Position numbers and translations under genes: made by a program. From an uncultured Aquimarina sp. (GTDB lineage Bacteria; Bacteroidota; Bacteroidia; Flavobacteriales; Flavobacteriaceae), in contig CANMWA010000009.1 of the NCBI GenBank assembly GCA_947501475.1, positions 76,308 through 140,307 of the forward strand: a stretch of 64,000 nt of DNA, written 5' to 3'. Positions within the stretch are counted from its first letter, which is position 1, and the number at the start of each line of letters is the position of its first letter. Positions 1 through 15,568 of this stretch are shown here, one piece after another. A model generated the notes under the pieces. The model worked only from the letters and a program-made list of their open reading frames with translations. It made no database searches and was not told where the DNA came from.

Positions 1-1
1 T

Positions 2-865
2 AAACTACTAGAGCATGATGATTTTCTTAAAAAGAACAAATTCACCATGCTGGGAGAAGTAGCCACGGTTGGTTATAGAAATCGATATTATGAGACTTTA
101 GGTAAAACCAAAGCCCATAACAAAATGCTATCTGCCTTATGGAGAGAAAGTCCTTTTTCTAAGATTGATAAGGGGCAAAAATTAATGACGATGGCTGCAT
201 TTTTACATATAGATAAAGATGATAATTCGCTTGTAGTAGAATTAATAAAAGCCTCATCGTTATCTGTTGAGGGATGGTTAGAACATTACTTACAGGCTTA
301 TTTAGCTCCGCTTTTGCATTGCTTATTTCAATATGAATTAGTGTTTATGCCTCATGGCGAAAATTTGATCATGGTTTTAGAAAATAATATTCCGGTAAAA
401 GTACTTATGAAAGATATTACCGAAGAGGTTGCCATTTTTGATAAAACAATAGAATTACCAGAAAAAGCAAAACGATTATATATCGAAGTTGATAATGAAA
501 TCAAAGCACTAGCTATTTTTACTGATGTCTTTGATTGTTTCTTTAGATTTCTATCCGATATTTTGGTAGTACAAGGCGGGTATTGTGAAACTATATTTTG
601 GAAACAAGTGGCAAACTGTATTCTAAAGTATCAAGAAGAACATCCTCAGCTTTCAGATAAATTCCAGCAAATTGATCTTTTTGCACCAGAATTCAAAAGA
701 TGTTGCCTTAATCGATTGCAATTGATGAATACACAGCACATGCTTAATCTTGTAGATCCAGTAGAAAGTTTGCAATTTAAAGGAACTCTAAAAAACCCTA
801 TTGCTCAATATAAAACAAATAAAAAACACACAAAATCAAATCAATCTTATGCAGCAGCACAATAG
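2..865 (+). CDS. IucA/IucC-family (NIS) siderophore synthetase, C-terminal part; 5' truncated by window edge
   Basis: Frame is open from base 2 (KLLEHDDF...). Motifs LSALWRES, PLLHCLFQYELVFMPHGENLI, MKDITEE and CCLNRLQL are typical of IucA/IucC plus the C-terminal FhuF-like domain. Confidence 0.9.
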   Translation, partial: KLLEHDDFLKKNKFTMLGEVATVGYRNRYYETLGKTKAHNKMLSALWRESPFSKIDKGQKLMTMAAFLHIDKDDNSLVVELIKASSLSVEGWLEHYLQAYLAPLLHCLFQYELVFMPHGENLIMVLENNIPVKVLMKDITEEVAIFDKTIELPEKAKRLYIEVDNEIKALAIFTDVFDCFFRFLSDILVVQGGYCETIFWKQVANCILKYQEEHPQLSDKFQQIDLFAPEFKRCCLNRLQLMNTQHMLNLVDPVESLQFKGTLKNPIAQYKTNKKHTKSNQSYAAAQ

Positions 866-1955
866 AATACTAGCAATAGACCTTGCAAGGGGTGTAAGTG
901 TACTTATGGTTATTTTGGTACATACGCTTTGGATTTATGGTGATACCCAAACTCAATCCCAAACCTGGTTGGGATCTATAATCCACTTTATAGGAAAAGG
1001 AACCCCGATGTTTTTGATCGCTATGGGCGTATCTTTTACATTATCTCGTAATCAAAATATAAAATTGTCTATTAAAAGAGCTTTCTATATTCTTATCATG
1101 GGGTATGTAATGAATTTTCTAAAGTTTGTACTTCCTGCTCTGGTAGGAACGGTCCCTGATAGTTTTATAGAAGCCTATGGCTGGACAACTCCTGCAACCT
1201 TTGATAATATGATCTACATGTTGGGGACTGGCGATATTTTACAATTGGCAGGGGTTTCATTATTATTTATGGGGCTTATTAACAAACTCTCTAAGAATAA
1301 ATATGTGCCATTGATTATTGCTTTATGTATTGCAGTTTTAACGAAAGAGGTTCATGGTTTTAGATTTGGTATTACTGGTATAGACTACGTTATGGACCTT
1401 TTGTGGGGAGCAGAGTGGAATGTATATTTTGCCGTATTTCCATGGTTTTCTTTTATCCTTATCGGGATGTTCTTTGGGATGTGGTATAAAGAGAGAAATA
1501 AAAGCGATAACTACCTCTTTAGTAGAATGCTCATTGCTGGTGTAGTTTTAATGAGTATTGGTGGTGGATTATGTTATTATAATTTTAAATATCACTTTGG
1601 AGATTATTTTCATTTAGGTCCTGGCGGAACGATGTATTTGGCAGGATTCAATTTGGTTTTAATGTGGTTAGCACATGTCTTAGTCAACCGGATAAAAGAA
1701 AATAGAATCTTTAATTTCTTTTACTATTGTAGTAAAAGAGTTACCACAATCTATGTAATCCAATGGGTAATTATCTGTTGGGGGATGGGTTTTCTAGGAT
1801 ATCAACAGTTTGGAGTTATTGGTGTTGTATTACTAATCCCATTCTATATTCTTTTGACTTTAGGGATTCAAAAGTTTGTATTAGACAAAATAAAAACCTC
1901 AAAGAACCCTAAAAAACAAACAATTACTATTACTAAAAAACAAGTAACGGTATAA
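849..1955 (+). CDS. DUF1624 / heparan-alpha-glucosaminide N-acetyltransferase-like polytopic membrane acyltransferase
   Basis: RILAIDLARGVSVLMVILVH, F.IAMGVS, GDILQLAG and FAVFPW motifs; about 10 hydrophobic segments. ATG at 849 overlaps the synthetase stop and is preferred over the TTG at 801. Confidence 0.75.
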   Translation: MQQHNRILAIDLARGVSVLMVILVHTLWIYGDTQTQSQTWLGSIIHFIGKGTPMFLIAMGVSFTLSRNQNIKLSIKRAFYILIMGYVMNFLKFVLPALVGTVPDSFIEAYGWTTPATFDNMIYMLGTGDILQLAGVSLLFMGLINKLSKNKYVPLIIALCIAVLTKEVHGFRFGITGIDYVMDLLWGAEWNVYFAVFPWFSFILIGMFFGMWYKERNKSDNYLFSRMLIAGVVLMSIGGGLCYYNFKYHFGDYFHLGPGGTMYLAGFNLVLMWLAHVLVNRIKENRIFNFFYYCSKRVTTIYVIQWVIICWGMGFLGYQQFGVIGVVLLIPFYILLTLGIQKFVLDKIKTSKNPKKQTITITKKQVTV

Positions 1956-1967
1956 AAATAGTATGCT

Positions 1968-2795
1968 ATGCGAGAGTTTGATTGTGTTTCAGTAGAATAT
2001 TTTAAAGAAGAGCAACTTTTGTTCTGGAGAATTAAAGACACCGGAATGCCTAATTTTTGTCTAAAAGGCCTTCAAGAATTTAAGGAGTTCTCTTATTGGG
2101 TAAAAAATTACTTTTCACATCCTGACAGGCCTTTGAAATTTATCGTTTCAGGATCAGAACATCATGGTATATATAATATGGGAGGGGATTTGCCTTTTTT
2201 TTTGGATTGTATTACCTCTAATAATATAGAAAGATTAAGAGTATATGCTCATCTTTGTATTGATGCTATTCACAACATATATACCTCTTTTGAGTTACCT
2301 GTAATTACCATTGCGTTAGTAGAAGGGAATGCATACGGCGGTGGTTTTGAATGTGCTTTGGCCCATGATTTTATACTCGCAGATGAAACTGTTCAATTTG
2401 GACTGCCAGAAAATAAATTCAATTTATTTCCTGGGATGGGAGGATATAGTTTGTTATATCGTAAACTACATGCAGTAGATGTCGACGCTATTATTCGAAG
2501 TGGAAAAGTTTACAAAGCCAGATATCTTGAATCTTTAGGACTAATCGAACAGCTTATTACTAAAGGTTTAGGAAGAAAATCGTTACATAGTTTTATAAAA
2601 AAAATAGATGAACGGTTTAATTTTGAATATCATCATATCCAATGTAAAAAAGTTATCAATCCATTATTTAAGAAAGAATTACTAGAAATAACTGATATTT
2701 GGGTAGACGCATGTATGAAAATTAAGCCGTTTGATTTACGTAAAATGGAAATTTTGGCAAAAGCACAGGCTAGAAAAACTAAATCTATCTTATGA
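1968..2795 (+). CDS. rpfF: RpfF-like crotonase (DSF synthase type enoyl dehydratase/thioesterase)
   Basis: YNMGGDLPFF, ALVEGNAYGGGFECAL, GLPENKFNLFPGMGGYS and C-terminal ITDIWVD...LRKMEILAKAQARK match the RpfF subfamily pattern. Both catalytic Glu motifs (GGGFE, GLPE) are present. Confidence 0.8.
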   Translation: MREFDCVSVEYFKEEQLLFWRIKDTGMPNFCLKGLQEFKEFSYWVKNYFSHPDRPLKFIVSGSEHHGIYNMGGDLPFFLDCITSNNIERLRVYAHLCIDAIHNIYTSFELPVITIALVEGNAYGGGFECALAHDFILADETVQFGLPENKFNLFPGMGGYSLLYRKLHAVDVDAIIRSGKVYKARYLESLGLIEQLITKGLGRKSLHSFIKKIDERFNFEYHHIQCKKVINPLFKKELLEITDIWVDACMKIKPFDLRKMEILAKAQARKTKSIL

Positions 2796-3812
2796 TTTAT
2801 GGTCATAAGATGCATAGGTGTTTCTGAATTTTTTGGGAGTTACACCTTCAATTTTCTTAAATGCAGCAGTAAAATGTGTTGAGTTCTTATAACCTACCAA
2901 TTCAGAGATTTCATATATAGGTTTTTTGGTGTGATGTAGCAGCTGTTTTGCTTTTTTCATGCGTTGATCGGTTGCATATTCAAAGATAGTTTTACCAAAT
3001 ACTCTTTTAAATTCTTTCTTTAAAATAAAATCATTTAATCCAATTTGTCGCGATAATTGCTGTATAGAATATTGAACTGTAAGATCAGAAGAAATTAGAT
3101 GCTGGGTTTTGTATAATTTTTTGATCAGATTGTCAACTTGGTTTAGTATTTCTGGTTTGTTTACTTTTTTGGTATCTAATTGTAAGGCAATCAACTCCAG
3201 TATTTTTGATTCTAGAAATAAACGTTTTAACAACCCTTTTCTTTGATCTGATATGATTTCTGAAAGTATTTCTTGAGTTTTAGAACACAAGGGTTGAGTA
3301 AAGTTGTTTTTTAAGCTTTTTAATGAATATCGATCCAGAATATCATAGGCTTCATTAAGGCGATGCCTTTTGATAAATGCAATATCCATTCTGATTTTTA
3401 TTTCTTTTAAATGTTTACGTTTATAATATGCGATAGAACCACTAATTTTTGATGCATAGACTAGATAACTTTCTTGACTTTCATATACTAAATCATTGTT
3501 TAGACCATTGACTTTGATGATTTGCTCCCCTTCGATAAGAAAAGATAACTCAAGAAAATCTTTAGAAAAATACCCTTCAATAGTAAGATCTTTATTAAAA
3601 AGTATATCAAACACGCCTACTGATAACCCATCAAAACGATGAAGCTCAAAATATCCAGTTCCGTATTCCTCTAAACATTTAAATTTTTTTGAAGTGATCC
3701 CACACTGTTCTTGTGTAGTAATTAATTGCGAAATAGTATATAAAGTACATTTGTTTTTTTGGGTATTGGTTTCGGTTTTAAGTGACGTTTTTTTACGTCT
3801 TTTTTTATCCAT
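2790..3812 (-). CDS. AraC-family regulator, PchR/YbtA-like
   Basis: FLESKILEL segment and C-terminal HTH (LSRQIGLNDFILKKEFKRVFG...VGYKNSTHFTAAFKKIEGVTP); divergent from the TonB receptor. Confidence 0.9.
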   Translation of the reverse strand: MDKKRRKKTSLKTETNTQKNKCTLYTISQLITTQEQCGITSKKFKCLEEYGTGYFELHRFDGLSVGVFDILFNKDLTIEGYFSKDFLELSFLIEGEQIIKVNGLNNDLVYESQESYLVYASKISGSIAYYKRKHLKEIKIRMDIAFIKRHRLNEAYDILDRYSLKSLKNNFTQPLCSKTQEILSEIISDQRKGLLKRLFLESKILELIALQLDTKKVNKPEILNQVDNLIKKLYKTQHLISSDLTVQYSIQQLSRQIGLNDFILKKEFKRVFGKTIFEYATDQRMKKAKQLLHHTKKPIYEISELVGYKNSTHFTAAFKKIEGVTPKKFRNTYASYDHKS

Positions 3813-3842
3813 AAAGCGTCATTTTTCTCTTTCTATAGGTAG

Positions 3843-3882
3843 TAATTTTGCGATTATATTTATTTAGATCAAATATAAATAA
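3843..3882 (+). promoter_or_regulatory. Bacteroidota -7 promoter element (TAATTTTG, 3843-3850) followed by a palindromic Fur-box-like operator (3860-3882)
   Basis: TAnnTTTG match, then the inverted repeat TTATTTAGA-n5-TATAAATAA immediately upstream of the iron-uptake operon. Confidence 0.6.
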
Positions 3883-3922
3883 TATTATAACTTCTAACTA
3901 AATTGTTTCAAAAAAATTGTAA

Positions 3923-6307
3923 TTGTCAGTGGTAGTTTTAAGAAAAAAATGCAATGTCTTTTTTCTGTTTTTTGCTATACTATCATGTATAGCACAAAAT
4001 AGCATTGAAGGAGTTGTTCTAGACCAAAATTCGAATCCAATTTCTGAAGTATCTATTACTATAATAGAACTTAAAAATGTGGGTGTAATGAGCGATTTTG
4101 ATGGGAAGTTTGAAATTTCAGTCCCTCAAGGTTCTTATACTTTAGAAACTAGTTTTGTAGGTTTTAGAACCAAACGCGTTTTGATCAATGCAAAAACTCC
4201 TGAAAAAGTATTTGTCACGATCACCCTTCAAGAAAATATTGAAGAATTGACCGATGTAATCATTACAGGGAAAACACAAGCTCAAAATATTAGAGAAAAG
4301 GCTTTTGAAGTTGAAGTAGTAGAAACCAAAAATCTTAAGAATCTAAGCGTAGATATAAATTCGGTTTTAAATACAATACCTGGCGTGGTTGTTCGCGAAA
4401 GTGGTGGCTTAGGTTCGAGATTTAATTTTTCACTACATGGATTTTCAGAAAATCAGGTACGATTTTTTATCGATGGAATCCCCCAGGATAATTTGGGTAC
4501 TTCTTTGACATTTAACAACTTTCCTGCTACCCTTATTGAACGAGCAGAGGTTTATAAAGGGGTAGTGCCAATATACCTGGGAGCCGATGCATTAGGAGGT
4601 GCTATTAACATTGTTACCAACCAAAGTAAAAAAACATTTTTGGATGTTTCTTATGATTCAGGTTCTTTTAATACACACAGGGCTACACTAAATGGAAACT
4701 ATCACAATAAAAATGGATTTGTGGCTCGAGTAGTCTCATTTTTTAACTATTCTGATAATGATTATACGATCAATCAAGTAGACCCAAGAGAAAAAGGCAT
4801 TGTTATACGAGATGAAAATGGTAACCGTACAGGAGAAATACTTGATAGTGCAGAACGGTTTCATGATGCTTACCAATCACAAATGGTACAAGCAAGAATA
4901 GGGTTGGTAGATAAAACATATGCAGATGAGCTATTTATTGGAGCAACAATAGCTTCTAATGATAATGAAATACAGCACGGGATTCTCGCCGTAAACCCAT
5001 TTGGAGATGTAAGAACTAAAGAAAATGTAACGCTAGGTTCTCTGGTTTATAAAAAAAATAGGATTCTTAGAATGCCTATAAAATTGAAAATATATGGGGA
5101 GCTTGCAAAAATACAATCAAAACAAATTGATACCTTTTCTAATAATTATAATTGGTCTGGAGAAGTTTTAGAACGAAATGATCAAACACGAGGAGAGTTG
5201 GGAGGCGCCAAAACACTATTTACCTTTGATGATCAAAGGCATATCATTAATACCTCTATAGCGTATGTGCCAAATAATTCGAATACGCTTCATTTTAATT
5301 ACACAAAAAATCACTTAAAACGACAAGGCAGTGATCCTTTTAGTATTTTCAAATCTCCTTTTGAAGATCCACATCATATTGATAAAAACATTTTAGGCTT
5401 GTCTTATGAGGTAGAAACCTTTAAGGAAAGATGGGAAACTACAGTGTTTTCAAAGCTGTTTTTGACAACAGTAAAAGGAATAATCGAGGATGAATTTGAT
5501 TCAAACGCAGCAACTAGATTCACAGCGTATAAAAATACTTCTCAAGAATGGGGGTATGGTATTGCATCTTCCTTTGATATAAATAATGAGATAAAGGCAA
5601 AGATTTCTTATGAAAAAACATTCAGAATACCTGAAGGTACAGAGCTATTTGGAGATGGGTTATTACTTAGTTCTAACCCCTTTTTAGAACCTGAACAAAG
5701 TGCTAATGTTAATGTTGGTTTTTTATGGAAAAGTAAAGCCAGTAACCTTCAGTTAGATGTAGATATGAATTCTTTCTATAGAGGTACTAAAAACCTTTTC
5801 TTTTTGTCGCCTGAAGGTGTGAAAGCTCGCTATATAAATCTAGCCGAAACCAGAAATGTAGGTTTTGAAGGAGAAATATCGATTTCTCATAAGGAACGTT
5901 TTTATGTAATTGCTAATGCTACATATCAATATATCACTGATGCCGTTAGGGATATTCGTGTGCCTAATCAGCCTTATTTTTTCGGAAATTTTAGAACAGG
6001 TTACACATTTCAGAACTTATTCTCATTTCAAGGAAAACTTACGATATCGTGGAATTCTCTTTTTACAGAAGAGTTTCCTTTTCAGTCCTTTAATGATGGA
6101 AATACCAATGATCGATTACGCATTCCACAACAATTTTCGCACAATTTACAATTAGGGTATTCTTTAGATGACCGCTATCATATATCTCTTCAGGTTAGAA
6201 ATTTAACAGATGCTAGCGTGTTTGATAATATTGCTGTTCAAAAACAAGGGCGTGCCTTTTTTGTGAAACTAAGATATTTTTTCAGTCAAAATAAATCCAA
6301 AATTTAA
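3923..6307 (+). CDS. TonB-dependent receptor (CarboxypepD_reg-like N-terminus, plug, beta-barrel), probable siderophore uptake
   Basis: Signal peptide; plug motifs IPGVVVRESGGLGS, RFFIDGIP, IERAEVYKGVVPIYLGADALGGAINIVT; C-terminal QGRAFFVKLRY. Exact start is uncertain (TTG 3923 or GTG 3929). Confidence 0.92.
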   Translation: MSVVVLRKKCNVFFLFFAILSCIAQNSIEGVVLDQNSNPISEVSITIIELKNVGVMSDFDGKFEISVPQGSYTLETSFVGFRTKRVLINAKTPEKVFVTITLQENIEELTDVIITGKTQAQNIREKAFEVEVVETKNLKNLSVDINSVLNTIPGVVVRESGGLGSRFNFSLHGFSENQVRFFIDGIPQDNLGTSLTFNNFPATLIERAEVYKGVVPIYLGADALGGAINIVTNQSKKTFLDVSYDSGSFNTHRATLNGNYHNKNGFVARVVSFFNYSDNDYTINQVDPREKGIVIRDENGNRTGEILDSAERFHDAYQSQMVQARIGLVDKTYADELFIGATIASNDNEIQHGILAVNPFGDVRTKENVTLGSLVYKKNRILRMPIKLKIYGELAKIQSKQIDTFSNNYNWSGEVLERNDQTRGELGGAKTLFTFDDQRHIINTSIAYVPNNSNTLHFNYTKNHLKRQGSDPFSIFKSPFEDPHHIDKNILGLSYEVETFKERWETTVFSKLFLTTVKGIIEDEFDSNAATRFTAYKNTSQEWGYGIASSFDINNEIKAKISYEKTFRIPEGTELFGDGLLLSSNPFLEPEQSANVNVGFLWKSKASNLQLDVDMNSFYRGTKNLFFLSPEGVKARYINLAETRNVGFEGEISISHKERFYVIANATYQYITDAVRDIRVPNQPYFFGNFRTGYTFQNLFSFQGKLTISWNSLFTEEFPFQSFNDGNTNDRLRIPQQFSHNLQLGYSLDDRYHISLQVRNLTDASVFDNIAVQKQGRAFFVKLRYFFSQNKSKI

Positions 6308-6319
6308 AATTAAGTAAGT

Positions 6320-7648
6320 ATGAAAACTCAAAAATGGAATTTCTATAGTATAATAATGATTATAGCAGCGATGTCTGCTTTTTCTTGTAGTGATGATGAT
6401 AATGAAACCGGATCAAATCCAGACCCAACAGCGACTACTAAATATGCGGTTGGTTTTCAAACATTACCTGTAGCTCAAGCTGGACCGGTTGATTATATGT
6501 TACAATTAAACTCTTTAGAATCTTTAACTACAGGAGAATTAACTGTAGAGGGGCAAGGTATACCTCAAACTGGTTGGCGATTTTTTCATCAAGCAGGTAA
6601 TACAATTTTTACAGCAGGTTATGTTGAAGATAGAACATGTATCTCATATCAATTAGACGAAAATGGTGAACTTAAAAAGAAAACCGATTTTGTATATCAA
6701 ACCACATTAAATAACTACTTGACTGTAGACGATAAAACGCTGCTAGCTGTAGAGTTGGCTTTTGGCGTATCGGATCCAGATGCGACTTCGATCCCAGATC
6801 GTAGTTTTTATGAAATAAACGCAGAAACAGGTCAGGTGGATCGTATAATTAGCCATCCTGTCGATAGTAGTGTAGGTGACGGAACTGCTGCAAATCCGCC
6901 TTACTTACCTTGGATAACGGGTATGGTGGTAAGAGATGGTAAATTATTTTTGTCGTATCATAAATATTTTCCTGATGGAAATGGAAATGCTATCGCAGTT
7001 GATAAAGCCTATATAGCAGTTTTAAAATACCCAGAATTTGAATTAGAAAAATTGATCGAAGACGATAGAACAAGTTCTATTGGGACTAATGGGCCAAGTA
7101 CAGGTATTGAACAAACAGAAAATGGAGATATTTATTCATATTCTTCCTCTTCACTAACATCTGGTATATCTGGAGCTACTAAGCCCTCTGGTGTGTTAAG
7201 AATTAAAAATGGCGAAACTGATTTTGATACAACATACTTTTTTGACGTAGAAAACGCAGCTAACGGAGGTAAAATATATTGGATGGATTATATAGATAAT
7301 GGAAAAGCTCTTGCTCGAGTTGTTCTTGATGATACTTTAGGTCAATGGGTAGCCTTTAGAGAGCAAGGAGAACAATTAAAATTAGTAGTATTAGATCTTA
7401 TAAATAAAACTGTTACCGATGTACAAGGAATCCCTCCTCATGCTAATCGGTATAGCTCACCAACGTTTGTTGAAGATGGAAAAGCTTATATAAGTGCAAG
7501 AACAGGAGAACTTTTAAATGAAAGCAGCACCAATACAGCAGACGGAGAAACTTATGTATACATTGTAGATCCTGCAACCGCAACCGCAACCAAAGGAGCA
7601 AAGATTAATGGATATGCTCTCAAAGGTATTTTTAAAGTAAGTAAGTAA
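6320..7648 (+). CDS. DUF4374-type surface lipoprotein (XusB-like siderophore-binding propeller)
   Basis: Lipobox SAFSC followed by acidic SDDDNE export signal; motifs YSSSS, KPSGVLRIKNGETDFDTTYFFD, YIVDPATATATKG; lies between a TonB receptor and a PepSY gene. Confidence 0.75.
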   Translation: MKTQKWNFYSIIMIIAAMSAFSCSDDDNETGSNPDPTATTKYAVGFQTLPVAQAGPVDYMLQLNSLESLTTGELTVEGQGIPQTGWRFFHQAGNTIFTAGYVEDRTCISYQLDENGELKKKTDFVYQTTLNNYLTVDDKTLLAVELAFGVSDPDATSIPDRSFYEINAETGQVDRIISHPVDSSVGDGTAANPPYLPWITGMVVRDGKLFLSYHKYFPDGNGNAIAVDKAYIAVLKYPEFELEKLIEDDRTSSIGTNGPSTGIEQTENGDIYSYSSSSLTSGISGATKPSGVLRIKNGETDFDTTYFFDVENAANGGKIYWMDYIDNGKALARVVLDDTLGQWVAFREQGEQLKLVVLDLINKTVTDVQGIPPHANRYSSPTFVEDGKAYISARTGELLNESSTNTADGETYVYIVDPATATATKGAKINGYALKGIFKVSK

Positions 7649-7664
7649 TTCAACTTTTGAGAAT

Positions 7665-7698
7665 AAAACACTCCTAAAATGTTTTTTAGGAGTGTTTT
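7665..7698 (+). terminator. Intrinsic terminator / mRNA-stabilising hairpin between lipoprotein and PepSY genes
   Basis: Perfect 15-bp inverted repeat AAAACACTCCTAAAA / TTTTAGGAGTGTTTT with a 4-nt loop. Confidence 0.75.
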
Positions 7699-7720
7699 CT
7701 AATCACTAAAATCTTGATGC

Positions 7721-8902
7721 ATGTTTTCAGCAAAAAAGAAGAATACTCGCAAAACAATTCTGCAACTCCATAAAATATTGGGATTAGCTACTGGTATTGT
7801 ACTTTTTATTGTATCCATTACTGGCTGTTTATGGGTTTTTAAAGATGAAATCGAAAGTTTTTATGACGACTATACATATGTAACTCCTCAAGAAAAAGGT
7901 TTTATAGCACCTTCTTTAGTAAAAAATATAGCCGAAGGTATAATTCCTGATAAAATCATTCATGGTGTTGTATATGGTAAACCCAATGAAGCCATTGAGG
8001 TAGTTTTTTATCAATCAGAACCTGAAATATTTTATCAAAGTGTTTTTTTGAATCCGTATACAGGTGATTTCATTAAACGAATAAATAATGATTCGGGTTT
8101 TTTTGGTTTTGTACTAAAAGGACATTTGCGTTTATGGCTACCAGATGCAATAGGTTCTAGAGTTGTATCCTATTCAATTTTATTGTTTTTGATCATAATG
8201 GTTAGCGGAATTTTTTTGTGGTGGCCCAGGAATAATAAAAATTGGCGTCAGCGCTTAAAATTTGATTGGAACAGTAAAACACGCTGGAAACGTAAAAATT
8301 TTGACCTACATACAGTTACAGGATTTTACATTTCTTCATTTGGATTGATATTGGCATTTACAGGGTGTGTTATGGCATTTAATTGGTTCTATTTTATTGC
8401 ATATAAAGCTACTGGAGGCGATAAGGCACCACAATTTATAATGCCCAAAAATATAAGTAAAAATAGCGTTGACCCTGTTCAAAATCCATTGTATGATGAA
8501 TTGATTCCTTTTTTATATAAAAAGTATACAAATGCAAAAAGTTTTGAACTTCATTATCCCGAAAATGATTCAACGTCTGTGCTGGTCGAGGTAAGTAATT
8601 CTAAAGGATTGTATTATAACATGGATTACCTTTTTTTTGATCAGAATACGTTACAAGAAATAGAAACCACCAGTATTTATGGAAAATATAAGGATGCCAA
8701 ATTTGCTGATAAGGTAATTCGTATGAACTATGATATTCATATTGGTGCTATTGGCGGCATTGTTGGTAAAATCATAGCGTTTTTAATAAGCCTTATTTGT
8801 GCTTCATTACCAATAAGTGGTATTTTATTGTGGTATGGAAGAACGTATAAAAGAAAACCTAGAAATCTTAGTAAGATAAAACCTTCTTATGATACTCTTT
8901 AG
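7721..8902 (+). CDS. PepSY-associated TM helix domain protein (iron reductase/uptake, XusC-like)
   Basis: LHKILGLATG...SITG, LKGHLRLWL, SGIFLWWP, FDLHTVTGFY and DIHIGAIGG His motifs. Confidence 0.9.
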   Translation: MFSAKKKNTRKTILQLHKILGLATGIVLFIVSITGCLWVFKDEIESFYDDYTYVTPQEKGFIAPSLVKNIAEGIIPDKIIHGVVYGKPNEAIEVVFYQSEPEIFYQSVFLNPYTGDFIKRINNDSGFFGFVLKGHLRLWLPDAIGSRVVSYSILLFLIIMVSGIFLWWPRNNKNWRQRLKFDWNSKTRWKRKNFDLHTVTGFYISSFGLILAFTGCVMAFNWFYFIAYKATGGDKAPQFIMPKNISKNSVDPVQNPLYDELIPFLYKKYTNAKSFELHYPENDSTSVLVEVSNSKGLYYNMDYLFFDQNTLQEIETTSIYGKYKDAKFADKVIRMNYDIHIGAIGGIVGKIIAFLISLICASLPISGILLWYGRTYKRKPRNLSKIKPSYDTL

Positions 8903-9888: not shown

Positions 9889-11550
9889 ATGAACTATAAA
9901 AAAATACTTTATAAAAGTATACTTTTACTACTGTACACAATATCTGCAATTGCTTATCAAGATACTACCATATCTCAAGAGAGTGAAGGAGATCTAAAAC
10001 AGATAGATTCGATTTTTACCCTACATAAAAAAGACCTTGACATTGCCAAAAGAGATCAAGATACTGCAAAAATGGCTCAAGGCTTTTATTATTTATCTAT
10101 TATTACTGATAGTAATATTTCTCAAAAATATAGTGATAGTGTTATAGCATTAACTCAAAACCGTAGTTTTCAGAATTATCCCATGCTAGCCTATCAAAAT
10201 AAAGCTACTATTTATTATAATGAAGGTAATTTTAAACAAGCTTTTGATTATTATCTTAAAACAAATGAAGAAGCCCAGAAATATAATAACGAGTTATACT
10301 TTCACCAGAGTATTAGGGATATGGCAATATTAAAAGCACACGTTGGTGAGCATGAAACAGGATTAGAACCTTTAAAAAAGTGTTATGAATACTTCTCTAA
10401 AATAAAAGAAACAAATTCGCTTGATTATTTGATAACACTTTTTGCATTATCAGACTCATATAATAAACATAAAATGTTGGATTCTGCTACACTTATTAAT
10501 ATGCTAGGAATAGAAGAATCAATACGCTTGGATAATAAGGATTTTGGTGATGGGTTCTATTTTACCTTTAACGAAGGGATTAATCAATACTATAAAGAGA
10601 ACTATCAAGCTGCAAAAGATAGTTTGGATAAATCATTAGATACATTGACCGCGATAGGAGATCTGGCAAATGAAGGAATGGCCTATTATTATTTGGGAAA
10701 AACCTTATCTGCATTGAATGATCAACAAGGGGCTATTAATGCACATAAGAAAGTCGATGAAATATTTCAGAAAACCCCAAGAGTAATTCCTGAGAGTCGA
10801 CAAAGCTATGAAATTCTAATTAGTCATTATAAAAAAATAGGTGATCGTGATAATCAATTAAAATATATCGAACGATTGATTACTATCGATAGTGTTATCA
10901 ATAGTAATTATAAATATTTAATTAAAAATGTAGTACAAAAGTATGATACCCCTAGACTTCTTTCCGAAAAACAAGAAATTATTGATTCGTTAGAAGATGA
11001 TAAAAAGTCATCAACGATGATGAATATTATATTGGTTGTTGTAAGCATATTGTTTTTAAGTTTTTGGATATTTAATTACTTTAAAAGAAGAAATTATAAG
11101 AAAAAATTTCATGAATTGTATTATTCTTCTGCGCAAACCAAAGTTGGTAGACAAGGTTCATTAAATCAAGAAAACCAAGAGCCAATAGGAGTATCTGAAG
11201 AGATTATCGAAGATATATTGCATAAGCTTGATGAATTTGAGAAAAATTTAAACTTTTTACAGCCCGATATCACTACAAGTACACTTTCTAAGACTTTTAA
11301 TACCAATTCTAAATATTTATCTAAAGTGGTAAATAGATACAAAAAGAAAAATTTTAGTGTATATATAAATGATTTAAGAATCGATTACTCTGTAGCAAAA
11401 CTTAAAGAAGATCAAAAGTTTAAACACTATACGATGAAAGCTATTGCTCAGGAAATTGGCTTTAATACAACCCAGGCGTTTTCTAAATCTTTTTATAAAA
11501 AGAATGGAATTCACCCTTCTTATTTCATTAAACAGCTACAAAGACAATAA
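9889..11550 (+). CDS. Transmembrane one-component regulator: signal peptide, TPR repeats, TM helix, AraC HTH
   Basis: N-terminal signal; TPR-like helices (AYQNKATIYYNEGNFKQAFDYYLK, AYYYLGKTLSALNDQQGAINAHKK); TM IILVVVSILFLSFWIF; HTH (LSKTFNTNSKYLSKVVN...INDLRIDY...IAQEIGFNTTQAFSKSFYKKNGIHPS). Confidence 0.9.
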   Translation: MNYKKILYKSILLLLYTISAIAYQDTTISQESEGDLKQIDSIFTLHKKDLDIAKRDQDTAKMAQGFYYLSIITDSNISQKYSDSVIALTQNRSFQNYPMLAYQNKATIYYNEGNFKQAFDYYLKTNEEAQKYNNELYFHQSIRDMAILKAHVGEHETGLEPLKKCYEYFSKIKETNSLDYLITLFALSDSYNKHKMLDSATLINMLGIEESIRLDNKDFGDGFYFTFNEGINQYYKENYQAAKDSLDKSLDTLTAIGDLANEGMAYYYLGKTLSALNDQQGAINAHKKVDEIFQKTPRVIPESRQSYEILISHYKKIGDRDNQLKYIERLITIDSVINSNYKYLIKNVVQKYDTPRLLSEKQEIIDSLEDDKKSSTMMNIILVVVSILFLSFWIFNYFKRRNYKKKFHELYYSSAQTKVGRQGSLNQENQEPIGVSEEIIEDILHKLDEFEKNLNFLQPDITTSTLSKTFNTNSKYLSKVVNRYKKKNFSVYINDLRIDYSVAKLKEDQKFKHYTMKAIAQEIGFNTTQAFSKSFYKKNGIHPSYFIKQLQRQ

Positions 11551-11625: not shown

Positions 11626-11704
11626 GGTGGTAGATTAATATTTCCGTTTTTTTATAGAATTATTCATAATTTCCGGTTTGAAAAAACGTAATTACTCAAA
11701 CTCA

Positions 11705-11902
11705 ATGAAAAAAGCAACAAACAAAAAATTAAGCTTAGACAAACTAAATATTACAAAGTTGTCTAAACAAAATACCATTAAAGGGGGGATTGTTTACAAT
11801 ACTTACCAGTTTACCTGTCAAACAGATTTAACGGTAAGACCTCGTGCTACAAATACAACTACAGGTTGCTCAAGTGGTCAATGTGAGGCAGCATTGAATT
11901 AG
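11705..11902 (+). CDS. Small double-glycine-leader Cys/Thr-rich peptide precursor 1 (class I lanthipeptide-like leader KKLSLDK)
   Basis: MKKATNKKLSLDKLNITKLSKQNTIKGG, then core IVYNTYQFTCQTDLTVRPRATNTTTGCSSGQCEAALN. ATG at 11705 aligns with the paralogue start. Confidence 0.75.
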   Translation: MKKATNKKLSLDKLNITKLSKQNTIKGGIVYNTYQFTCQTDLTVRPRATNTTTGCSSGQCEAALN

Positions 11903-11992: not shown

Positions 11993-12199
11993 ATGAAAAA
12001 AGCAAGAAACAAAAAATTAAGCCTAGACAAATTAAATATTACAAAATTAACTAAACTAAATTTTGTAGTAGGAGGATATGTTGAAAGTCAAGTAATAGGT
12101 GTAAATGGCTGTGAGCCAGATTTAACAGTAAGACCACGTAATACAGGTACGACTGCAGAATGCCCAACTAATGGACAATGTGAAAACGAATTTGCCTGA
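11993..12199 (+). CDS. Small double-glycine-leader peptide precursor 2
   Basis: MKKARNKKLSLDKLNITKLTKLNFVVGG, then core YVESQVIGVNGCEPDLTVRPRNTGTTAECPTNGQCENEFA. The 5' UTR (AATTACTCAAACTC) and leader DNA are duplicated from precursor 1. Confidence 0.75.
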   Translation: MKKARNKKLSLDKLNITKLTKLNFVVGGYVESQVIGVNGCEPDLTVRPRNTGTTAECPTNGQCENEFA

Positions 12200-12480: not shown

Positions 12481-14706
12481 ATGATAAGGTTTTTGATAAT
12501 TTTAATTAGTATTGGCTCAGTTTCATTAAGCTGGGGGCAAATAAATACCAATGAAAAAAAATCTTTTGTAGTTGGTAATACTTCAGAAAAAATTGAGATT
12601 GATGGTGATCTAAGTGAAGCTGTGTGGAGCAAATTAACTCCTGCCAAGGATTTTGTACAGTACTTCCCTTCAGACTCCCTTCCTGCAAAAGCACAGACAG
12701 AAATTTATATGTGTACCGATAAGAAAAACCTATATATCGGTATAAAATGTTATGCGATTGGTAATGATTGGATCGTAAATTCGTTACGCAGAGATTATAG
12801 AGCCGGAGGATCAGATAACATTACCTTTTTGTTTGATACATTTGATGATGGTACCAATGCATTGTATTTTGGAATTAACCCAGAAGGCGTACTTCGTGAA
12901 GGAATCATAAGCAACGGAGGTAATGTATTAAGGGATTTTTCGACCTCCTGGGATAATAAATGGATAGGTGAAGCAAAGAAATATGATGGATATTATACTG
13001 CTGAGCTTGAGATCCCCTTCAGTACATTAAGATACCCCACACCTTCCAAAAAATGGGGGTTTTCTACATACCGTTTCGATTCTCAATCTAATGAAATAAG
13101 TACCTACTCTAGAGTACCTCGTAACCAGATTGTTTTTACGTTGGCATATCCCGCTGATATGATTTGGGAAGAAGAATTAACTACCAAAAGTAGTGCAGTT
13201 TCTTTAATTCCATTTGTGTCGTCTGGTTTTAATAAAAATTTCGAAGATGATACACCTTCAGATGATTTTTTTGAAGCAGGAGGTGATGTAAAAATTGCAC
13301 TAACACCAGGACTTAATTTGGATCTAACGGTTAACCCTGATTTTTCGCAAGTAGAAGTAGACGAGCAGATCACAAATTTGGATCGGTTTGAGATTTTTTT
13401 CCCAGAACGCAGACAATTTTTTCTGGAAAATGCCGATTTGTTTGGTCAGTTTGGTTTTGCCAATATCAATCCGTTTTTTTCTAGACGTATAGGGGTTGCT
13501 GAAGATGTAAATACCGAAGATTTAGTGCAAAATAGAATTTACGGTGGTTTGCGCATTAGCGGAAAAATTGATACCGATACACGAATTGGTCTTTTAAATA
13601 TGCAAACGGCTGCTAGTGATAATCAAGGTATATCAAGTACTAATTATGGAGTGGCTGTGGTACAACGAAAATTATGGACGCGTTCAAATATTGGTATAAT
13701 AGCCGTAAATAAGGAGATTTTTGATTATGAAGAATCCGACACCCTAGATATCAATAGATACAATAGGATGGCTGGTGTAGATTTTAATTATGCAACAAAA
13801 GATAATACCTGGTCTGGAAAAACATTTGTACATGGCACTTTTACACCAGAACAAGATGTGTCAATTGCTCAAGGAAGTACATTAAATTATAATACCAGAA
13901 AATTTGGTGTATTATGGAAACATGAATATGTAGATGAAGATTATAATGCCGAGGTTGGTTTTGTACCCCGTGCTAATTATTATAGAATTAACCCAGTTAC
14001 AGAACTTAGATATTATCCTCAAAACGAGTTTTTAAACAATCATACTTATAGCGCAGAAGGCGATATTTTTTGGCGCCCAGGTTTTGGTAAGACAGATCAT
14101 TTCTTTTCTGCAGGATGGGGAGGAGAGTTTGCAGAAAGGGCTTCTTTTGGCGTAAATCTAAATCATAATTATGTCTACCTATTTGATCCGTTTGATCCAA
14201 CAGGAACAGATTCTCTTGAGCTGGATGCTGATCAGGATTTTTCATATTTCAGTTTTACAGGAAGCTATAGAAGTGATAGGCGGAAAGTATTTAGTTGGAA
14301 TTTTAACCCATATATAGGCGAATATTTTAATGGTTGGCGATATGGGACAAGAGGAAATTTTACTATTCGTTACCAACCCAGAGGTTCATTTTCTCTTAAT
14401 TATGCGGTAAACTTTTTTGATTTACCACATCTTGATGGTGGCAGAGAGACGTTCTTAATTAGTCCGCGAATAGATTATACGTTTTCAAAGAGTTTATTTA
14501 CCTCGCTATTTGTGCAATATAATTCTCAAGATGATAATACCAACATCAATGCACGGATCCAGTGGCGTTTTGCTCCGGTATCAGATCTAATACTTGTGTA
14601 TACCGATAATTTCCTGACCGGAGAAGTAGATCCTTTAGATCGTTTTGCGTTTAATGTACGTACCCGATCTGTTGTGCTTAAAGTTACCTATTGGCTTAAT
14701 TTATGA
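12481..14706 (+). CDS. CBM9-like domain plus DUF5916 outer-membrane beta-barrel protein
   Basis: IEIDGDLSEAVW, GYYTAELEIPFSTLRY, LNLDLTVNPDFSQVEVD and FFPERRQFFLE motifs; signal peptide. Confidence 0.85.
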   Translation: MIRFLIILISIGSVSLSWGQINTNEKKSFVVGNTSEKIEIDGDLSEAVWSKLTPAKDFVQYFPSDSLPAKAQTEIYMCTDKKNLYIGIKCYAIGNDWIVNSLRRDYRAGGSDNITFLFDTFDDGTNALYFGINPEGVLREGIISNGGNVLRDFSTSWDNKWIGEAKKYDGYYTAELEIPFSTLRYPTPSKKWGFSTYRFDSQSNEISTYSRVPRNQIVFTLAYPADMIWEEELTTKSSAVSLIPFVSSGFNKNFEDDTPSDDFFEAGGDVKIALTPGLNLDLTVNPDFSQVEVDEQITNLDRFEIFFPERRQFFLENADLFGQFGFANINPFFSRRIGVAEDVNTEDLVQNRIYGGLRISGKIDTDTRIGLLNMQTAASDNQGISSTNYGVAVVQRKLWTRSNIGIIAVNKEIFDYEESDTLDINRYNRMAGVDFNYATKDNTWSGKTFVHGTFTPEQDVSIAQGSTLNYNTRKFGVLWKHEYVDEDYNAEVGFVPRANYYRINPVTELRYYPQNEFLNNHTYSAEGDIFWRPGFGKTDHFFSAGWGGEFAERASFGVNLNHNYVYLFDPFDPTGTDSLELDADQDFSYFSFTGSYRSDRRKVFSWNFNPYIGEYFNGWRYGTRGNFTIRYQPRGSFSLNYAVNFFDLPHLDGGRETFLISPRIDYTFSKSLFTSLFVQYNSQDDNTNINARIQWRFAPVSDLILVYTDNFLTGEVDPLDRFAFNVRTRSVVLKVTYWLNL

Positions 14707-14811: not shown

Positions 14812-15561
14812 TTATCGATGTAATCGATCCAAAATTTCCATGACCTCATTCTTTTTTCTTACCGACACGGGAATGTTTTCTCCGTTTTTTAGCATAAGAT
14901 ACCCTCCGTCGGTTTTAATAAAAGCACTAATACATTGCAAATTAACTAAGTGACTTTGATGTACTCTTAAAAATTGATAGTTCTTAAGCATATCAGCAAA
15001 GTATTTTAAAGTTTTGGTTACAAAAATCTTTTGCTCATCTTGTAGATAAAAAATAGTATTATTACTGTCGGATTCGCAACGTATAATGTCATCTAGATTC
15101 ACAATAATAATTTTATCGAGTGTATGTAATGATATTTTATCGGGTTTTTGCTCTGGAGCCGACAGTGTGTCTTTTAAAATATTTAAACGCTCTCTATTGG
15201 GTTGAATTTGCTCTTTAGCTTTGGCTATGGCTTGCGCTAGTTCTTCATTTGAGTATGGTTTTAGTACATAATCGATAGCAGCAAATTTGAATGCCCTGAT
15301 AGCATATTCATCGCTAGCTGTTACAAAAATGATTTTGGATTTTAATTCAGGAAATATTTCTAAAACATCAAAACCAGTACCATCGCCTAACATAATATCC
15401 AAAAATAGGATATCGGGCTCTGTATTTCTTAATGATTTTGCCGCTTCAACAACACTTTGGGCTGTATCAATAATTTTTATTTCGGGATGATTCGTTTCTA
15501 GATCACTCTTCAAAAGTTGGAGTGCATCTGTCATGTCTTCTACAATAATAGCTGTTAGCAT
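14812..15561 (-). CDS. LytR/AlgR (LytTR) response regulator
   Basis: Receiver motifs IVED, LFLDIML, FVTA and K; LytTR motifs IIRCESDSNNT and FLRVHQSHLVN. Confidence 0.93.
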   Translation of the reverse strand: MLTAIIVEDMTDALQLLKSDLETNHPEIKIIDTAQSVVEAAKSLRNTEPDILFLDIMLGDGTGFDVLEIFPELKSKIIFVTASDEYAIRAFKFAAIDYVLKPYSNEELAQAIAKAKEQIQPNRERLNILKDTLSAPEQKPDKISLHTLDKIIIVNLDDIIRCESDSNNTIFYLQDEQKIFVTKTLKYFADMLKNYQFLRVHQSHLVNLQCISAFIKTDGGYLMLKNGENIPVSVRKKNEVMEILDRLHR

Positions 15562-15568
15562 AATAATA

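Follow-up and report, generated by a model that had tools for sequence, protein, structure and literature searches.

The last gene of a siderophore operon at the start of the window (the whole 64-kb stretch of Aquimarina DNA analysed here) encodes a 275-aa crotonase that is a genuine member of the RpfF/DfsA branch of DSF synthases within the crotonase superfamily. The best reading, to which we give a probability of roughly 0.55, is that this enzyme supplies a lipid-tailed siderophore with its cis-2-unsaturated fatty tail. The known role of DSF synthases is to produce quorum signals; in the present case, siderophore operons contain a monophyletic branch of the family, apparently recruited for biosynthesis. 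Judging from gene order, the RpfF-like gene has most likely been captured as the terminal, probably co-transcribed accessory gene of a desferrioxamine/bisucaberin-type NIS operon in a few genera of marine Flavobacteriaceae.

Gene order and family membership of the crotonase

Of the synthetase gene, only the 3' part falls within the window; its start and the remaining operon lie upstream. The genes are arranged as follows:

2..865, + strand: 3' part of a DesD/BsbD2/TenD2-like NIS synthetase (287 codons; C-terminal part of IucA/IucC plus an FhuF-like domain)
849..1955, + strand: AT3/HGSNAT membrane acyltransferase (368 aa), orthologue of hp2 of the Tenacibaculum maritimum ten operon
1968..2795, + strand: RpfF/DfsA-family (DSF-synthase-type) crotonase (275 aa), the operon's last gene
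2790..3812, - strand: convergent AraC-family regulator (340 aa; Pfam HTH_18/HTH_AraC)
3923..6307, + strand: TonB-dependent outer-membrane receptor of siderophore type, MxcH-like (Pfam Plug and TonB_dep_Rec_b-barrel; N-terminal CarboxypepD_reg domain)
6320..7648, + strand: DUF4374 (XusB-type) surface lipoprotein, the receptor's partner (Pfam DUF4374 5.5e-24)
7721..8902, + strand: PepSY_TM inner-membrane protein, XusC-like, third gene of the uptake set (Pfam PepSY_TM 5.6e-58)

The synthetase frame matches Pfam FhuF (2.5e-42) and IucA_IucC (1.2e-9) and ends in a TAG stop at 863-865; in related loci, the upstream synthetase ORFs share 58-68% identity with the Tenacibaculum DesD2 reference (blastp). 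The acyltransferase matches HGSNAT_cat (1.3e-22) and Acyl_transf_3 (5.3e-15), and most likely starts at ATG 849 (MQQHNRILAIDLARG...) because its homologues and the Pfam match begin there. A mechanical ORF list also offers an upstream TTG at 801 as a start. With ATG 849, the synthetase and acyltransferase overlap by 17 nt, and 12 nt separate the acyltransferase stop (1953-1955) from the crotonase ATG at 1968, which is the coupling of the three genes that the original prediction described. The 3' ends of the araC gene and the crotonase gene overlap by 6 nt, and the AraC protein probably regulates the siderophore cluster. The receptor scores 449 bits on the NCBIfam MxcH model, under that model's cut-off, and its synteny is kept in loci L008, L010, L014, L088, and L090; synteny of the PepSY_TM gene is also kept in related loci. 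The Pfam accession for DUF4374 carries XusB as a second label.

No intrinsic terminator was predicted in window positions 1-2795, and the scan of 1-4200 returned a single weak one, within araC and not above shuffles. A sigma-70 promoter scan of 1-4200 gave 20 promoter-like sites against 21 expected from shuffles, Bacteroidota promoters being outside its coverage. A search for public sequencing runs (DNA or RNA) containing window positions 1-4000 found none.

The crotonase matches Pfam ECH_1 and scores 273 bits on NCBIfam NF006452 (PRK08788), against a curated cut-off of 177; the DfsA and Xcc RpfF fragments, from characterised relatives, reach 345 and 357 bits, and a Franconibacter homologue 398 bits. 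The narrow Xanthomonas RpfF equivalog, NF053515, gives the window protein 158 bits and has a cut-off of 550. This sub-cut-off score is no argument against synthase function because the DfsA fragment (216 aa), from a proven BDSF synthase, obtains only 175 bits on the same model. In phmmer searches against the PDB, DfsA/RpfF (1e-48) and Xcc RpfF (2e-37) were the leading matches, with ordinary crotonases at best 7e-14. In all replicates (200/200) of a neighbor-joining tree (206 columns, 200 bootstraps, distance-based method only), the RpfF-like sequences stood apart from three ordinary crotonases, PaaF and PaaG among them. The flavobacterial clade, also at 200/200, is nested within the RpfF-like family and is sister to DfsA and Franconibacter in 161/200. 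An AF2 model of the crotonase (pLDDT 92, pTM 0.90) retrieved DfsA, RpfF, or RpF-1 entries at all of Foldseek ranks 1-12 (TM 0.88-0.92, rmsd 1.4-2.1 Å); the next matches, at E ~5e-15, trail these by some six orders of magnitude in E-value. The superposition agrees with the family's build of a crotonase core plus a C-terminal helical region. The designation "RpfF-like" in the original prediction is right at the family level, agreeing with NF006452, tree, fold, and catalytic residues and failing on the narrow NF053515 model alone, and the phylogeny places the protein with RpfF/DfsA (200/200) and not among ordinary enoyl-CoA hydratases; none of the computational tests gave an outcome that would refute that prediction.

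The catalytic glutamates of Xanthomonas RpfF are Glu141 and Glu161, and roles have been assigned to several pocket residues (PMC9864630). E128 and E148 of the window crotonase align to this pair, and both glutamates, whose presence the original prediction had noted, are invariant across the 85 flavobacterial homologues (47-77% identity across ~85 sequences). Pocket residues G85, G137, G138, M170, and W258 (Xcc numbering) are conserved in at least 83 of the 85 sequences, and the window protein retains six of the seven members of the Xcc set Gly85, Leu136, Gly137, Gly138, Met170, Trp258, and Leu276. The Leu136 position is Tyr in 82 and Phe in 3 of the 85 flavobacterial sequences and Leu in 101 of 104 outside sequences. 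The clade-specific changes are Y123, K150, and C249 in window numbering (L136Y, L163 to Lys, and A262C in Xcc numbering), K150 being Ala in DfsA. At the level of sequence comparison, the Tyr at L136 and Lys at L163 suggest an altered substrate or partner in the flavobacterial clade.

Operon context across Flavobacteriaceae

The RpfF-like gene is the last gene in at least 13 des/bsb/ten-type loci, including those of Aquimarina, Kordia, Tenacibaculum, and Flavivirga, where this type is defined by one or more IucA/IucC synthetases plus DesA, DesB, and DesC on one strand; the flavobacterial loci counted are a sample and not a census. These loci come from other homologues, since exact-sequence queries with the window protein and with P0002, its best homologue, matched no contig. 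Spacing between the preceding gene and the RpfF-like gene in these loci ranges from -4 to 59 nt. The arrangement is not due to chance, because the gene closes the same operon type in at least 13 independent loci. Embedding of the gene in an NIS operon, as described in the original prediction, is conserved across the four named genera. A full set of DesA decarboxylase, DesB monooxygenase, DesC acyltransferase, and IucA-IucC synthetase lies upstream of the orthologue in loci L001, L006-L010, L012-L014, L089, and L091. Of the 12 des/bsb/ten-type loci for which a downstream flank is available, 10 have the convergent araC gene directly after the RpfF-like gene. In the T. mesophilum and T. aiptasiae loci, the RpfF-like gene begins 12-24 nt after a homologue of hp4, and the NCBI-named T. 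aiptasiae protein (P0076) is encoded in this operon type.

The accessory genes form a modular block oriented towards lipids. The AT3/HGSNAT acyltransferase is always present (13/13 des/bsb/ten-type loci listed), whereas nitroreductase, lipase/esterase, and FA_hydroxylase genes are variable. Aquimarina hainanensis carries a module of DesC-like acyltransferase, FA_hydroxylase, AT3, lipase, and RpfF-like genes with no NIS synthetase within 10 kb upstream, and the RpfF-like copy of Flavivirga aquatica is split into two ORFs. The copies of A. aquimarini and I32.4 (L088, L090) are divergent, lie ~800 bp from the preceding gene, and have degraded motifs. An ACP-like gene and an AMP-ligase near these copies were considered as proof of a lipid-tail pathway; this association was downgraded because these strains carry another type of NIS cluster upstream, the ~800-bp gap intervenes, the motifs are degraded, and the strains are close relatives, and it may be a coincidence.

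The published ten operon of T. maritimum, tenABECDC2D2-hp1-4, in which hp2 is described, is transcribed from tenA to hp4 as a single iron-repressed mRNA, as shown by RT-PCR (PMC12276236). Because hp4 and the araC gene that follows it have consecutive locus tags (PMC12276236), this cluster has no RpfF-like gene. It is nevertheless the source of 20 acyl-desferrioxamines, whose tails include both saturated and unsaturated chains; the RpfF-like gene is therefore an optional tailoring gene and not a general lipidation gene. The T. mesophilum bsb (bisucaberin B) cluster, as published, spans 8.8 kb and six ORFs and ends at bsbD2. Neither published cluster description, ten or bsb, mentions a crotonase or DSF-synthase gene.

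Among the scanned window ORFs of at least 150 aa, none encodes RpfB (AMP-binding ligase), RpfC (HisKA-REC-Hpt), RpfG (HD-GYP), or RpfR (PAS-GGDEF-EAL), and the original prediction had already reported the last three as missing. No RpfC/G/R/S-type receptor stands beside the RpfF-like gene in any flavobacterial locus examined. A convergent RpfC-type hybrid kinase (HisKA-HATPase-REC-Hpt) adjoins 35-40 of 57 sampled non-flavobacterial homologue loci and none of the flavobacterial loci examined; the closest non-flavobacterial relatives are found in signalling contexts.

Proposed tail supply and competing readings

In tenacibactin K, the N-hydroxylated N15 bears an iso-pentadecenoyl group that is alpha,beta-unsaturated in cis configuration (J = 11.4 Hz); the compound occurs alongside tenacibactins L (cis-4) and M (saturated) (PMC8767563). 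Its producer, Tenacibaculum sp. C16-1, has a 16S rRNA 99.4% identical to that of T. aiptasiae. Tail supply is the best reading, and most likely ranks above a quorum signal, because tenacibactin K bears a DSF-type cis-2 tail and the T. aiptasiae protein is encoded in this operon type. The tail-supply option of the original prediction thereby gains independent chemical support, from the cis-2-enoyl iso-C15 hydroxamate tail of a compound made by a T. aiptasiae-like strain. RpfF enzymes convert 3-hydroxyacyl-ACP to cis-2 acids, iso-branched ones included (PMC9864630; PMC4542539), and Tenacibaculum lipids are dominated by iso-C15 and 3-OH iso-acids (PMC12281758).

Like its relatives, the crotonase would take a 3-hydroxyacyl thioester from fatty-acid synthesis, mainly iso-branched C15-type chains on ACP, dehydrate it to the cis-2-enoyl thioester, and then probably hydrolyse it. 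The released cis-2-enoic acid would be re-activated by a ligase encoded outside the cluster; the published cluster has no fatty-acid ligase for this step (PMC12276236). One of the two DesC-type N-acyltransferase domains would then load the acid onto N-hydroxycadaverine, giving N-hydroxy-N-(cis-2-enoyl)cadaverine as the end unit of an amphiphilic acyl-desferrioxamine comparable to tenacibactin K. The AT3 acyltransferase would be a second tailoring enzyme, which may add a cap, acetyl or some other acyl, to an amine. We infer that the crotonase makes the tail, what its substrate is, and that the Aquimarina of the window produces such a compound. As a counterpoint, hp4, of the FA_hydroxylase/desaturase family, could be the source of some double bonds. 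Literature searches found no work linking RpfF or DSF to siderophores in Flavobacteria or tenacibactin to a crotonase or RpfF, and nothing useful on rhizobactin 1021 tail synthesis; acylated NIS products were not covered in a Bacteroidetes genome-mining paper.

An unlikely, though tenable, alternative is that the free cis-2-enoic acid acts as a DSF-type signal, coupled to iron starvation by co-transcription and read by a non-RpfC/RpfR sensor such as the AraC protein, either alone or alongside tail supply. All catalytic and most pocket residues of the signal-making RpfF/DfsA enzymes are retained, the flavobacterial clade groups as sister to the RpfR-linked BDSF synthases (161/200), and its nearest outside relatives occupy signalling contexts, as described above. 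The convergent araC gene directly after the RpfF-like gene in 10 of the 12 loci listed with a downstream flank also fits, since some AraC-family regulators (HilD, ToxT, Rns) bind fatty acids, cis-2-unsaturated ones included. However, AraC regulators next to siderophore clusters usually sense the siderophore, and the regulator is independent of the synthase, because the T. maritimum cluster has the same araC gene without an RpfF-like gene. Receptors of the RpfC/G/R/S type are absent from the scanned ORFs (at least 150 aa) of the 64-kb window and from the neighbourhood of the gene in the flavobacterial loci examined, the cis-2-enoyl acid has been found incorporated in a Tenacibaculum siderophore, and the systematic L136 to Tyr and L163 to Lys changes suggest a changed substrate or partner. 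To our knowledge, no case of DSF signalling has been described in Bacteroidota, and our searches found none. A dual role is distinctly improbable: the cis-2-enoic acid would serve as siderophore tail and as a DSF-family signal made only in iron starvation, read by AraC either free or once released from the siderophore. If true, making an iron scavenger that cells share would itself convey information on density or relatedness, and Bacteroidota would possess a DSF circuit whose receptor belongs to a new class.

Other forms of lipid handling, which we regard as improbable, would make the crotonase a general acyl-ACP/acyl-CoA thioesterase, a hydratase/dehydratase editing the attached tail, or a hydrolase recycling acyl-thioester intermediates, with the variable neighbours AT3, Abhydrolase_3 lipase, and FA_hydroxylase as partners. 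The thioesterase activity of RpfF besides its dehydratase activity (PMC9864630) is consistent with such roles, as are the lipid-oriented accessory block with its constant AT3, the A. hainanensis module standing apart from any NIS synthetase in the 10 kb upstream, and the tenacibactins L and M that accompany K. This explanation, however, leaves the conservation of a DSF-synthase-type enzyme and the cis-2 congener unaccounted for, and both glutamates required for dehydration are invariant. That the gene encodes an ordinary beta-oxidation enoyl-CoA hydratase, or is a decaying passenger with no role in the cluster, is barely credible. Pfam gives ECH_1/ECH_2 only, but beta-oxidation and hydratase models score the protein at no more than 65 bits against cut-offs of at least 249 (best FadB, 65 vs 870), and the tree and fold put it inside the DSF synthases; model scores, tree, fold, and catalytic residues together contradict the hydratase identity. 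The split Flavivirga aquatica copy and the divergent, distant copies of A. aquimarini and I32.4 would suit a passenger, but identities of 47-77% with invariant catalytic residues (~85 sequences) and the fixed operon position in the four named genera argue against it.

If tail supply is confirmed, the cis-2-enoyl tail of tenacibactin-type siderophores, so far unexplained, will have a gene assigned to it, and the bsb/ten clusters (possibly including database entries with six bsb ORFs) will be extended by conserved AT3 and RpfF-like tailoring genes. The gene would also become a genetic marker predicting cis-2-enoyl amphiphilic siderophores in marine Flavobacteriaceae, including fish- and invertebrate-associated Tenacibaculum and Aquimarina, and would raise the question of cross-talk between the siderophore or its breakdown products and DSF sensing in neighbouring Proteobacteria. 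Membership in NF006452 should not by itself lead to annotation as a "DSF synthase" if that term implies that a signal is made.

Comparison with known DSF and siderophore systems

The closest solved relatives of the window crotonase are the BDSF synthases DfsA of B. cenocepacia (RpfF_Bc, Bcam0581, PDB 5fus) and Cronobacter turicensis RpfF (6dgn). DfsA and the window enzyme share 41% identity over 206 aligned columns (phmmer 1e-48; model TM 0.92, rmsd 1.4 Å), membership in NF006452, the catalytic Glu pair, the GGGFE and FPGMG motifs, and W245. DfsA-type enzymes produce a free signal and work with RpfR (PAS-GGDEF-EAL) as their receptor, whereas the window gene, with no receptor gene found nearby, sits at the tail of a siderophore operon. 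X. campestris RpfF (PDB 3m6m/3m6n) has the same family and fold (2e-37; TM 0.89), with Glu141/Glu161 kept. Unlike in the Xanthomonas rpfBFCG arrangement, no rpfB, rpfC, or rpfG lies near the window gene, and its predicted product would enter a siderophore instead of being secreted as a signal.

Among siderophores, rhizobactin 1021 and acinetoferrin were originally proposed as analogues; they do carry 2-enoyl tails, but these are trans-2, and the relevant precedent is cis-2. Mycobactin likewise bears a cis-2-enoyl fatty tail on an N-hydroxy amine, forming a hydroxamate in an amphiphilic siderophore. Its lipid-tail pathway comprises FadD33/MbtM, the MbtL ACP, the FadE14 dehydrogenase, and the MbtK acyltransferase, so that an acyl-ACP dehydrogenase, and not a crotonase, creates the double bond, and its scaffold is of NRPS/PKS and not NIS origin. 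The ten and bsb clusters are of the same operon type as that of the window, with which they share the AT3/HGSNAT acyltransferase (hp2), a convergent araC gene, and genes for TonB-dependent uptake, and their products are desferrioxamine-like and often acylated. In contrast to the ten operon, the window operon has no hp1, hp3, or hp4 between synthetase and crotonase. Tenacibactins K-M, which are known as chemistry alone and are linked to the gene through the 16S similarity of their producer, are desferrioxamine-type compounds with an iso-C15 acyl hydroxamate, and the acyl group of tenacibactin K is cis-2-unsaturated, the product type of RpfF.

The siderophore locus and its surroundings

The window opens within the NRPS-independent siderophore (NIS) synthetase gene of a siderophore operon. 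The genes of the locus are as follows.

Genes of the siderophore locus
2-865, + strand: C-terminal half of the NIS synthetase (287 residues), comprising the end of the IucA/IucC domain and a complete FhuF-like domain
849-1955, + strand: AT3/HGSNAT-family multi-pass membrane protein (AT3; 368 aa, ATG at 849, stop at 1953-1955)
1968-2795, + strand: crotonase-fold protein, the RpfF-like protein (275 aa, ATG at 1968)
2790-3812, - strand: AraC-family gene, convergent on the crotonase gene
3923-8902, + strand: TonB-dependent receptor, DUF4374/XusB-type lipoprotein and PepSY_TM protein, a siderophore-uptake set forming an XusABC-like trio

The ATG of AT3 at 849 lies ahead of the synthetase stop codon (863-865), and 12 nt separate the AT3 stop from the crotonase ATG at 1968; the coordinates, the 17 nt overlap and the 12 nt gap of the original prediction are thus all correct. 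No intrinsic terminator is predicted between these three coupled genes. The 3' ends of the operon and araC overlap by 6 nt (2790-2795), where ttatga carries both stop codons, and at homologue loci L006, L008, L009, L013, L089 and L091 the two ends are likewise at most 7 nt apart or overlapping. Any read-through from the operon would run antisense to araC and might interfere with its transcription. The uptake trio adjoins the biosynthetic operon, and its receptor scores 449 bits on the model of the myxochelin receptor MxcH, under the cut-off of 925.

Further along the window, a TPR and HTH_18 regulator (9889-11550) precedes two paralogous small ORFs on the + strand (11678-11902, 74 aa; 11993-12199, 68 aa), and a DUF5916 protein (12481-14706) follows them. 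These ORFs share the leader KKLSLDKLNITKL(S/T)K...GG and have Cys in their C-termini; they resemble precursors of Bacteroidota GG-leader RiPPs or bacteriocins. Between these RiPP-like genes and an extracellular contractile injection system (eCIS; 19984-54449, + strand) lie two genes on the - strand (14812-18622), for a response regulator of LytTR type (249 aa) and a Reg_prop/His_kinase sensor of 1017 aa. The eCIS is complete and includes Pvc16_N, sheath (21591-23492), CIS_tube, Phage_base_V spike and Baseplate_J components, a 1598-aa eCIS_core protein (33856-38652), three DUF6734 genes, a CIS tape-measure protein, a 1385-aa PKD protein, a muramidase and an AAA ATPase. GC content, otherwise about 0.33, reaches 0.45 at 34-36 kb, within the eCIS_core gene.

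Family membership and pocket residues

Five independent tests, namely NCBIfam models, PDB matches, a tree, structural comparison and residue conservation, agree that the window protein is RpfF-like, as originally predicted, rather than an ordinary hydratase. Its top NCBIfam model is NF006452/PRK08788 (273 bits; cut-off 177), and FadB, PaaF, EchA and similar models score at most 65 bits. NF006452 is a broad DSF-synthase family, on which fragments of DfsA (the Burkholderia cenocepacia BDSF synthase) and of Xanthomonas (Xcc) RpfF, as well as the Franconibacter and alphaproteobacterial homologues, score 345-398 bits. On the narrow Xanthomonas RpfF equivalog, NF053515 (cut-off 550), the window protein obtains 158 bits, and the fragment of DfsA, a proven BDSF synthase, reaches just 175 bits. 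Against PDB sequences, E-values are 1e-48 for DfsA and Cronobacter RpfF, 2e-37 for Xcc RpfF, and no better than 7e-14 for ordinary crotonases.

The phylogeny proposed with the original prediction was built by neighbour joining, a distance-based method, from 206 shared columns, with PDB fragments among the sequences. In 200/200 bootstraps, it set every RpfF-like sequence, the window protein included, apart from three ordinary crotonases, two of them E. coli PaaF and PaaG. Flavobacterial members group together as a single clade (200/200) inside the DSF-synthase family, with DfsA and Franconibacter as its sister (161/200). An AlphaFold2 model of the window protein (pLDDT 92) retrieved DSF-synthase entries as its top 12 Foldseek matches (TM 0.88-0.92, rmsd 1.4-2.1 Å); ordinary crotonases followed at E-values roughly six orders of magnitude higher, and Pseudomonas aeruginosa DspI ranked 48th.

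In Xcc RpfF, Glu141 and Glu161 are catalytic, and Gly85, Gly137, Gly138, Met170, Trp258 and Leu276 line the pocket (PMC9864630). The window protein has every one of these residues, including the two glutamates already noted in the original prediction. All except Leu276 are conserved in at least 83 of 85 flavobacterial sequences; the Leu276 position holds Leu in 52 of the 85 and Ile, Phe or Met in the others. The systematic exception is the Leu136 position, which is Tyr in 82/85. Two further changes are specific to the clade: Lys150 replaces Leu163, two residues past the second glutamate, and Cys249 replaces Ala262. With the family residues kept alongside these three substitutions, the window protein is a true DSF-synthase family member with a distinctive pocket. 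That the gene encodes an ordinary hydratase, or is a dead passenger, is essentially excluded.

Genomic context across relatives

Among the named matches listed, homologues with at least 47% identity occur only in Aquimarina, Kordia, Tenacibaculum and Flavivirga. The next homologues fall to 41% identity or less, and their loci, among the matches listed, are mostly proteobacterial. The loci from the genome scan are a sample, which contains at least 13 flavobacterial loci sharing this operon type; the 13 annotated comprise five Aquimarina-type, Kordia, Flavivirga, four Tenacibaculum and two further assemblies. Conservation of the neighbourhood in Flavobacteriaceae, a check put forward earlier, is complete in this set: the RpfF-like gene is terminal in an NIS-type operon at 13/13 loci, ending the strand of a desA-desB-MFS-desCD-(desC2-desD2 or second desCD) cluster, at a distance from the preceding gene that ranges from a 4 nt overlap to 59 nt. 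An AT3 gene is likewise found in all 13, and a nitroreductase, an Abhydrolase_3 lipase/esterase and an FA_hydroxylase-family gene each occur in just part of the clusters. A convergent AraC gene directly follows the RpfF-like gene at 10 of the 12 loci with downstream flank, often within 1-7 nt or overlapping.

Several loci depart from this arrangement. In Flavivirga aquatica (L014, 10001-10833), the RpfF-like gene is broken up into ORFs of 96 and 175 aa and is a probable pseudogene; the remaining cluster looks intact, which suggests that the RpfF-like gene is dispensable. A. hainanensis (L011, 5873-10840) carries an orphan accessory module of a DesC-like acyltransferase (206 aa), FA_hydroxylase, AT3, lipase and RpfF-like genes, followed by a 956-aa protein; an NIS synthetase is absent from the 10 kb upstream examined, and the module may act in trans or on foreign siderophores. 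A. aquimarini (L088, 7526-10819) and Aquimarina sp. I32.4 (L090, 7544-10834) have a second NIS cluster type, which encodes an IucC-acyltransferase fusion of reversed domain order, MatE, an 80-aa ACP-like protein (EWDSMSHL motif; weak ACP match, 5.8e-5) and a 463-aa AMP-binding ligase. There, a spacer of 808 bp (L088) or 790 bp (L090) precedes a divergent RpfF-like copy in which GGAFE is present and GGDLPFF is replaced.

Outside the flavobacteria, the neighbourhood is mostly of a signalling type. Of 57 such homologues, 35-40 have downstream a convergent HisKA-HATPase-REC-Hpt hybrid kinase (RpfC architecture), and the Franconibacter homologue is followed by a PAS-GGDEF-EAL protein (RpfR architecture). 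Among the matches listed, the pairing with an RpfC-architecture kinase is widespread in loci L015-L086, mostly from Alphaproteobacteria (Acetobacteraceae, Sphingomonadales, Rhodospirillales, Hyphomicrobiales), and also occurs in Terriglobia, Opitutaceae and Deferrimicrobiaceae MAGs. Given this contrast with the flavobacterial NIS operons, the clade appears to have shifted from a signalling to a biosynthetic neighbourhood. Among the scanned ORFs of at least 150 aa in the 64-kb window, no RpfB, RpfC, RpfG or RpfR candidate was found, in line with the earlier statement for the last three.

Proposed tail supply, its rivals and the published clusters

The most likely mechanism (probability about 0.55) is that the RpfF-like enzyme supplies a cis-2-enoyl siderophore tail. 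The enzyme would take a 3-hydroxy-(iso)acyl thioester out of fatty-acid synthesis, dehydrate it to the cis-2-enoyl form and then probably release it. A ligase encoded elsewhere would re-activate the acid, one of the two DesC-type acyltransferase domains would place it on N-hydroxycadaverine, and the NIS synthetases would add N-hydroxy-N-succinyl-cadaverine units, so that this Aquimarina would make an amphiphilic siderophore. AT3 would carry out a distinct tailoring step. HGSNAT proteins, to which it is related, transfer acetyl to a free amine across a membrane; speculatively, such a reaction could account for the N-acetyl caps found in T. maritimum. The lack of a ligase in the cluster was also remarked upon by the T. 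maritimum authors (PMC12276236).

The most telling literature item concerns tenacibactin K, which bears an iso-pentadecenoyl group on the N-hydroxylated N15 (PMC8767563). HMBC correlations of both olefinic protons (near 6.0 and 6.3 ppm) to C14 (166.2 ppm) show that the double bond is conjugated with the carbonyl, and a coupling constant J = 11.4 Hz marks the bond as cis (PMC8767563). This cis-2 iso-branched acyl group is exactly a DSF-family acid. RpfF enzymes are described as deriving acids of this kind from 3-hydroxyacyl-ACP intermediates in the synthesis of branched-chain fatty acids (PMC9864630; PMC4542539), and Tenacibaculum lipids are dominated by iso-C15 and 3-hydroxy-iso acids (PMC12281758). 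The producer, Tenacibaculum sp. C16-1, would connect to the RpfF-like gene through T. aiptasiae, to which it is matched by 16S only (99.4% identity; PMC8767563). In the literature searched, no paper tied tenacibactins or these clusters to RpfF, DSF synthase or crotonases.

Acylation in T. maritimum, which proceeds without an RpfF-like gene, counts against tail supply (PMC12276236; PMC12224167). So does the FA_hydroxylase-family gene, which may create further double bonds, for example the one at cis-4 in tenacibactin L. A rather unlikely alternative, which could coexist with tail supply, is that the enzyme makes a DSF-type signal coupled to iron, which the AraC regulator next to it may read; however, none of the known receptor types is linked, the AraC gene also exists where the synthase is absent, and a cis-2 acid has been found as part of a siderophore. 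More doubtful still is a wider function in lipid handling, for example as a general thioesterase or in tail editing.

Two related clusters have been described. The bsb cluster of T. mesophilum was reported as six ORFs ending with bsbD2 that yield bisucaberin B in E. coli (PMC6164419). Its T. maritimum counterpart, tenABECDC2D2-hp1-4, encodes in hp1-4 a nitroreductase, an HGSNAT/AT3 protein, a lipase/esterase and a "sterol desaturase"; by RT-PCR, tenA to hp4 form a single mRNA, stronger with iron starvation (PMC12276236). A T. maritimum strain yields 20 amphiphilic acyl-desferrioxamine-like compounds, with tails of variable length and unsaturation on an N-hydroxy-N-acyl-cadaverine unit (PMC12224167). 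Unlike the window, the published ten cluster is without an RpfF-like gene, since hp4 and araC carry consecutive locus tags. In T. mesophilum and at the locus of the NCBI-named T. aiptasiae protein, the gene lies 12-24 nt past the hp4 homologue; neither the bsb nor the ten paper mentions it (PMC6164419; PMC12276236). The DSF-synthase gene family and the NIS cluster type were already known; new are a monophyletic DSF-synthase branch that has become fixed in last position in NIS operons of marine Flavobacteriaceae, and its match to a cis-2-enoyl siderophore tail of previously unexplained origin.
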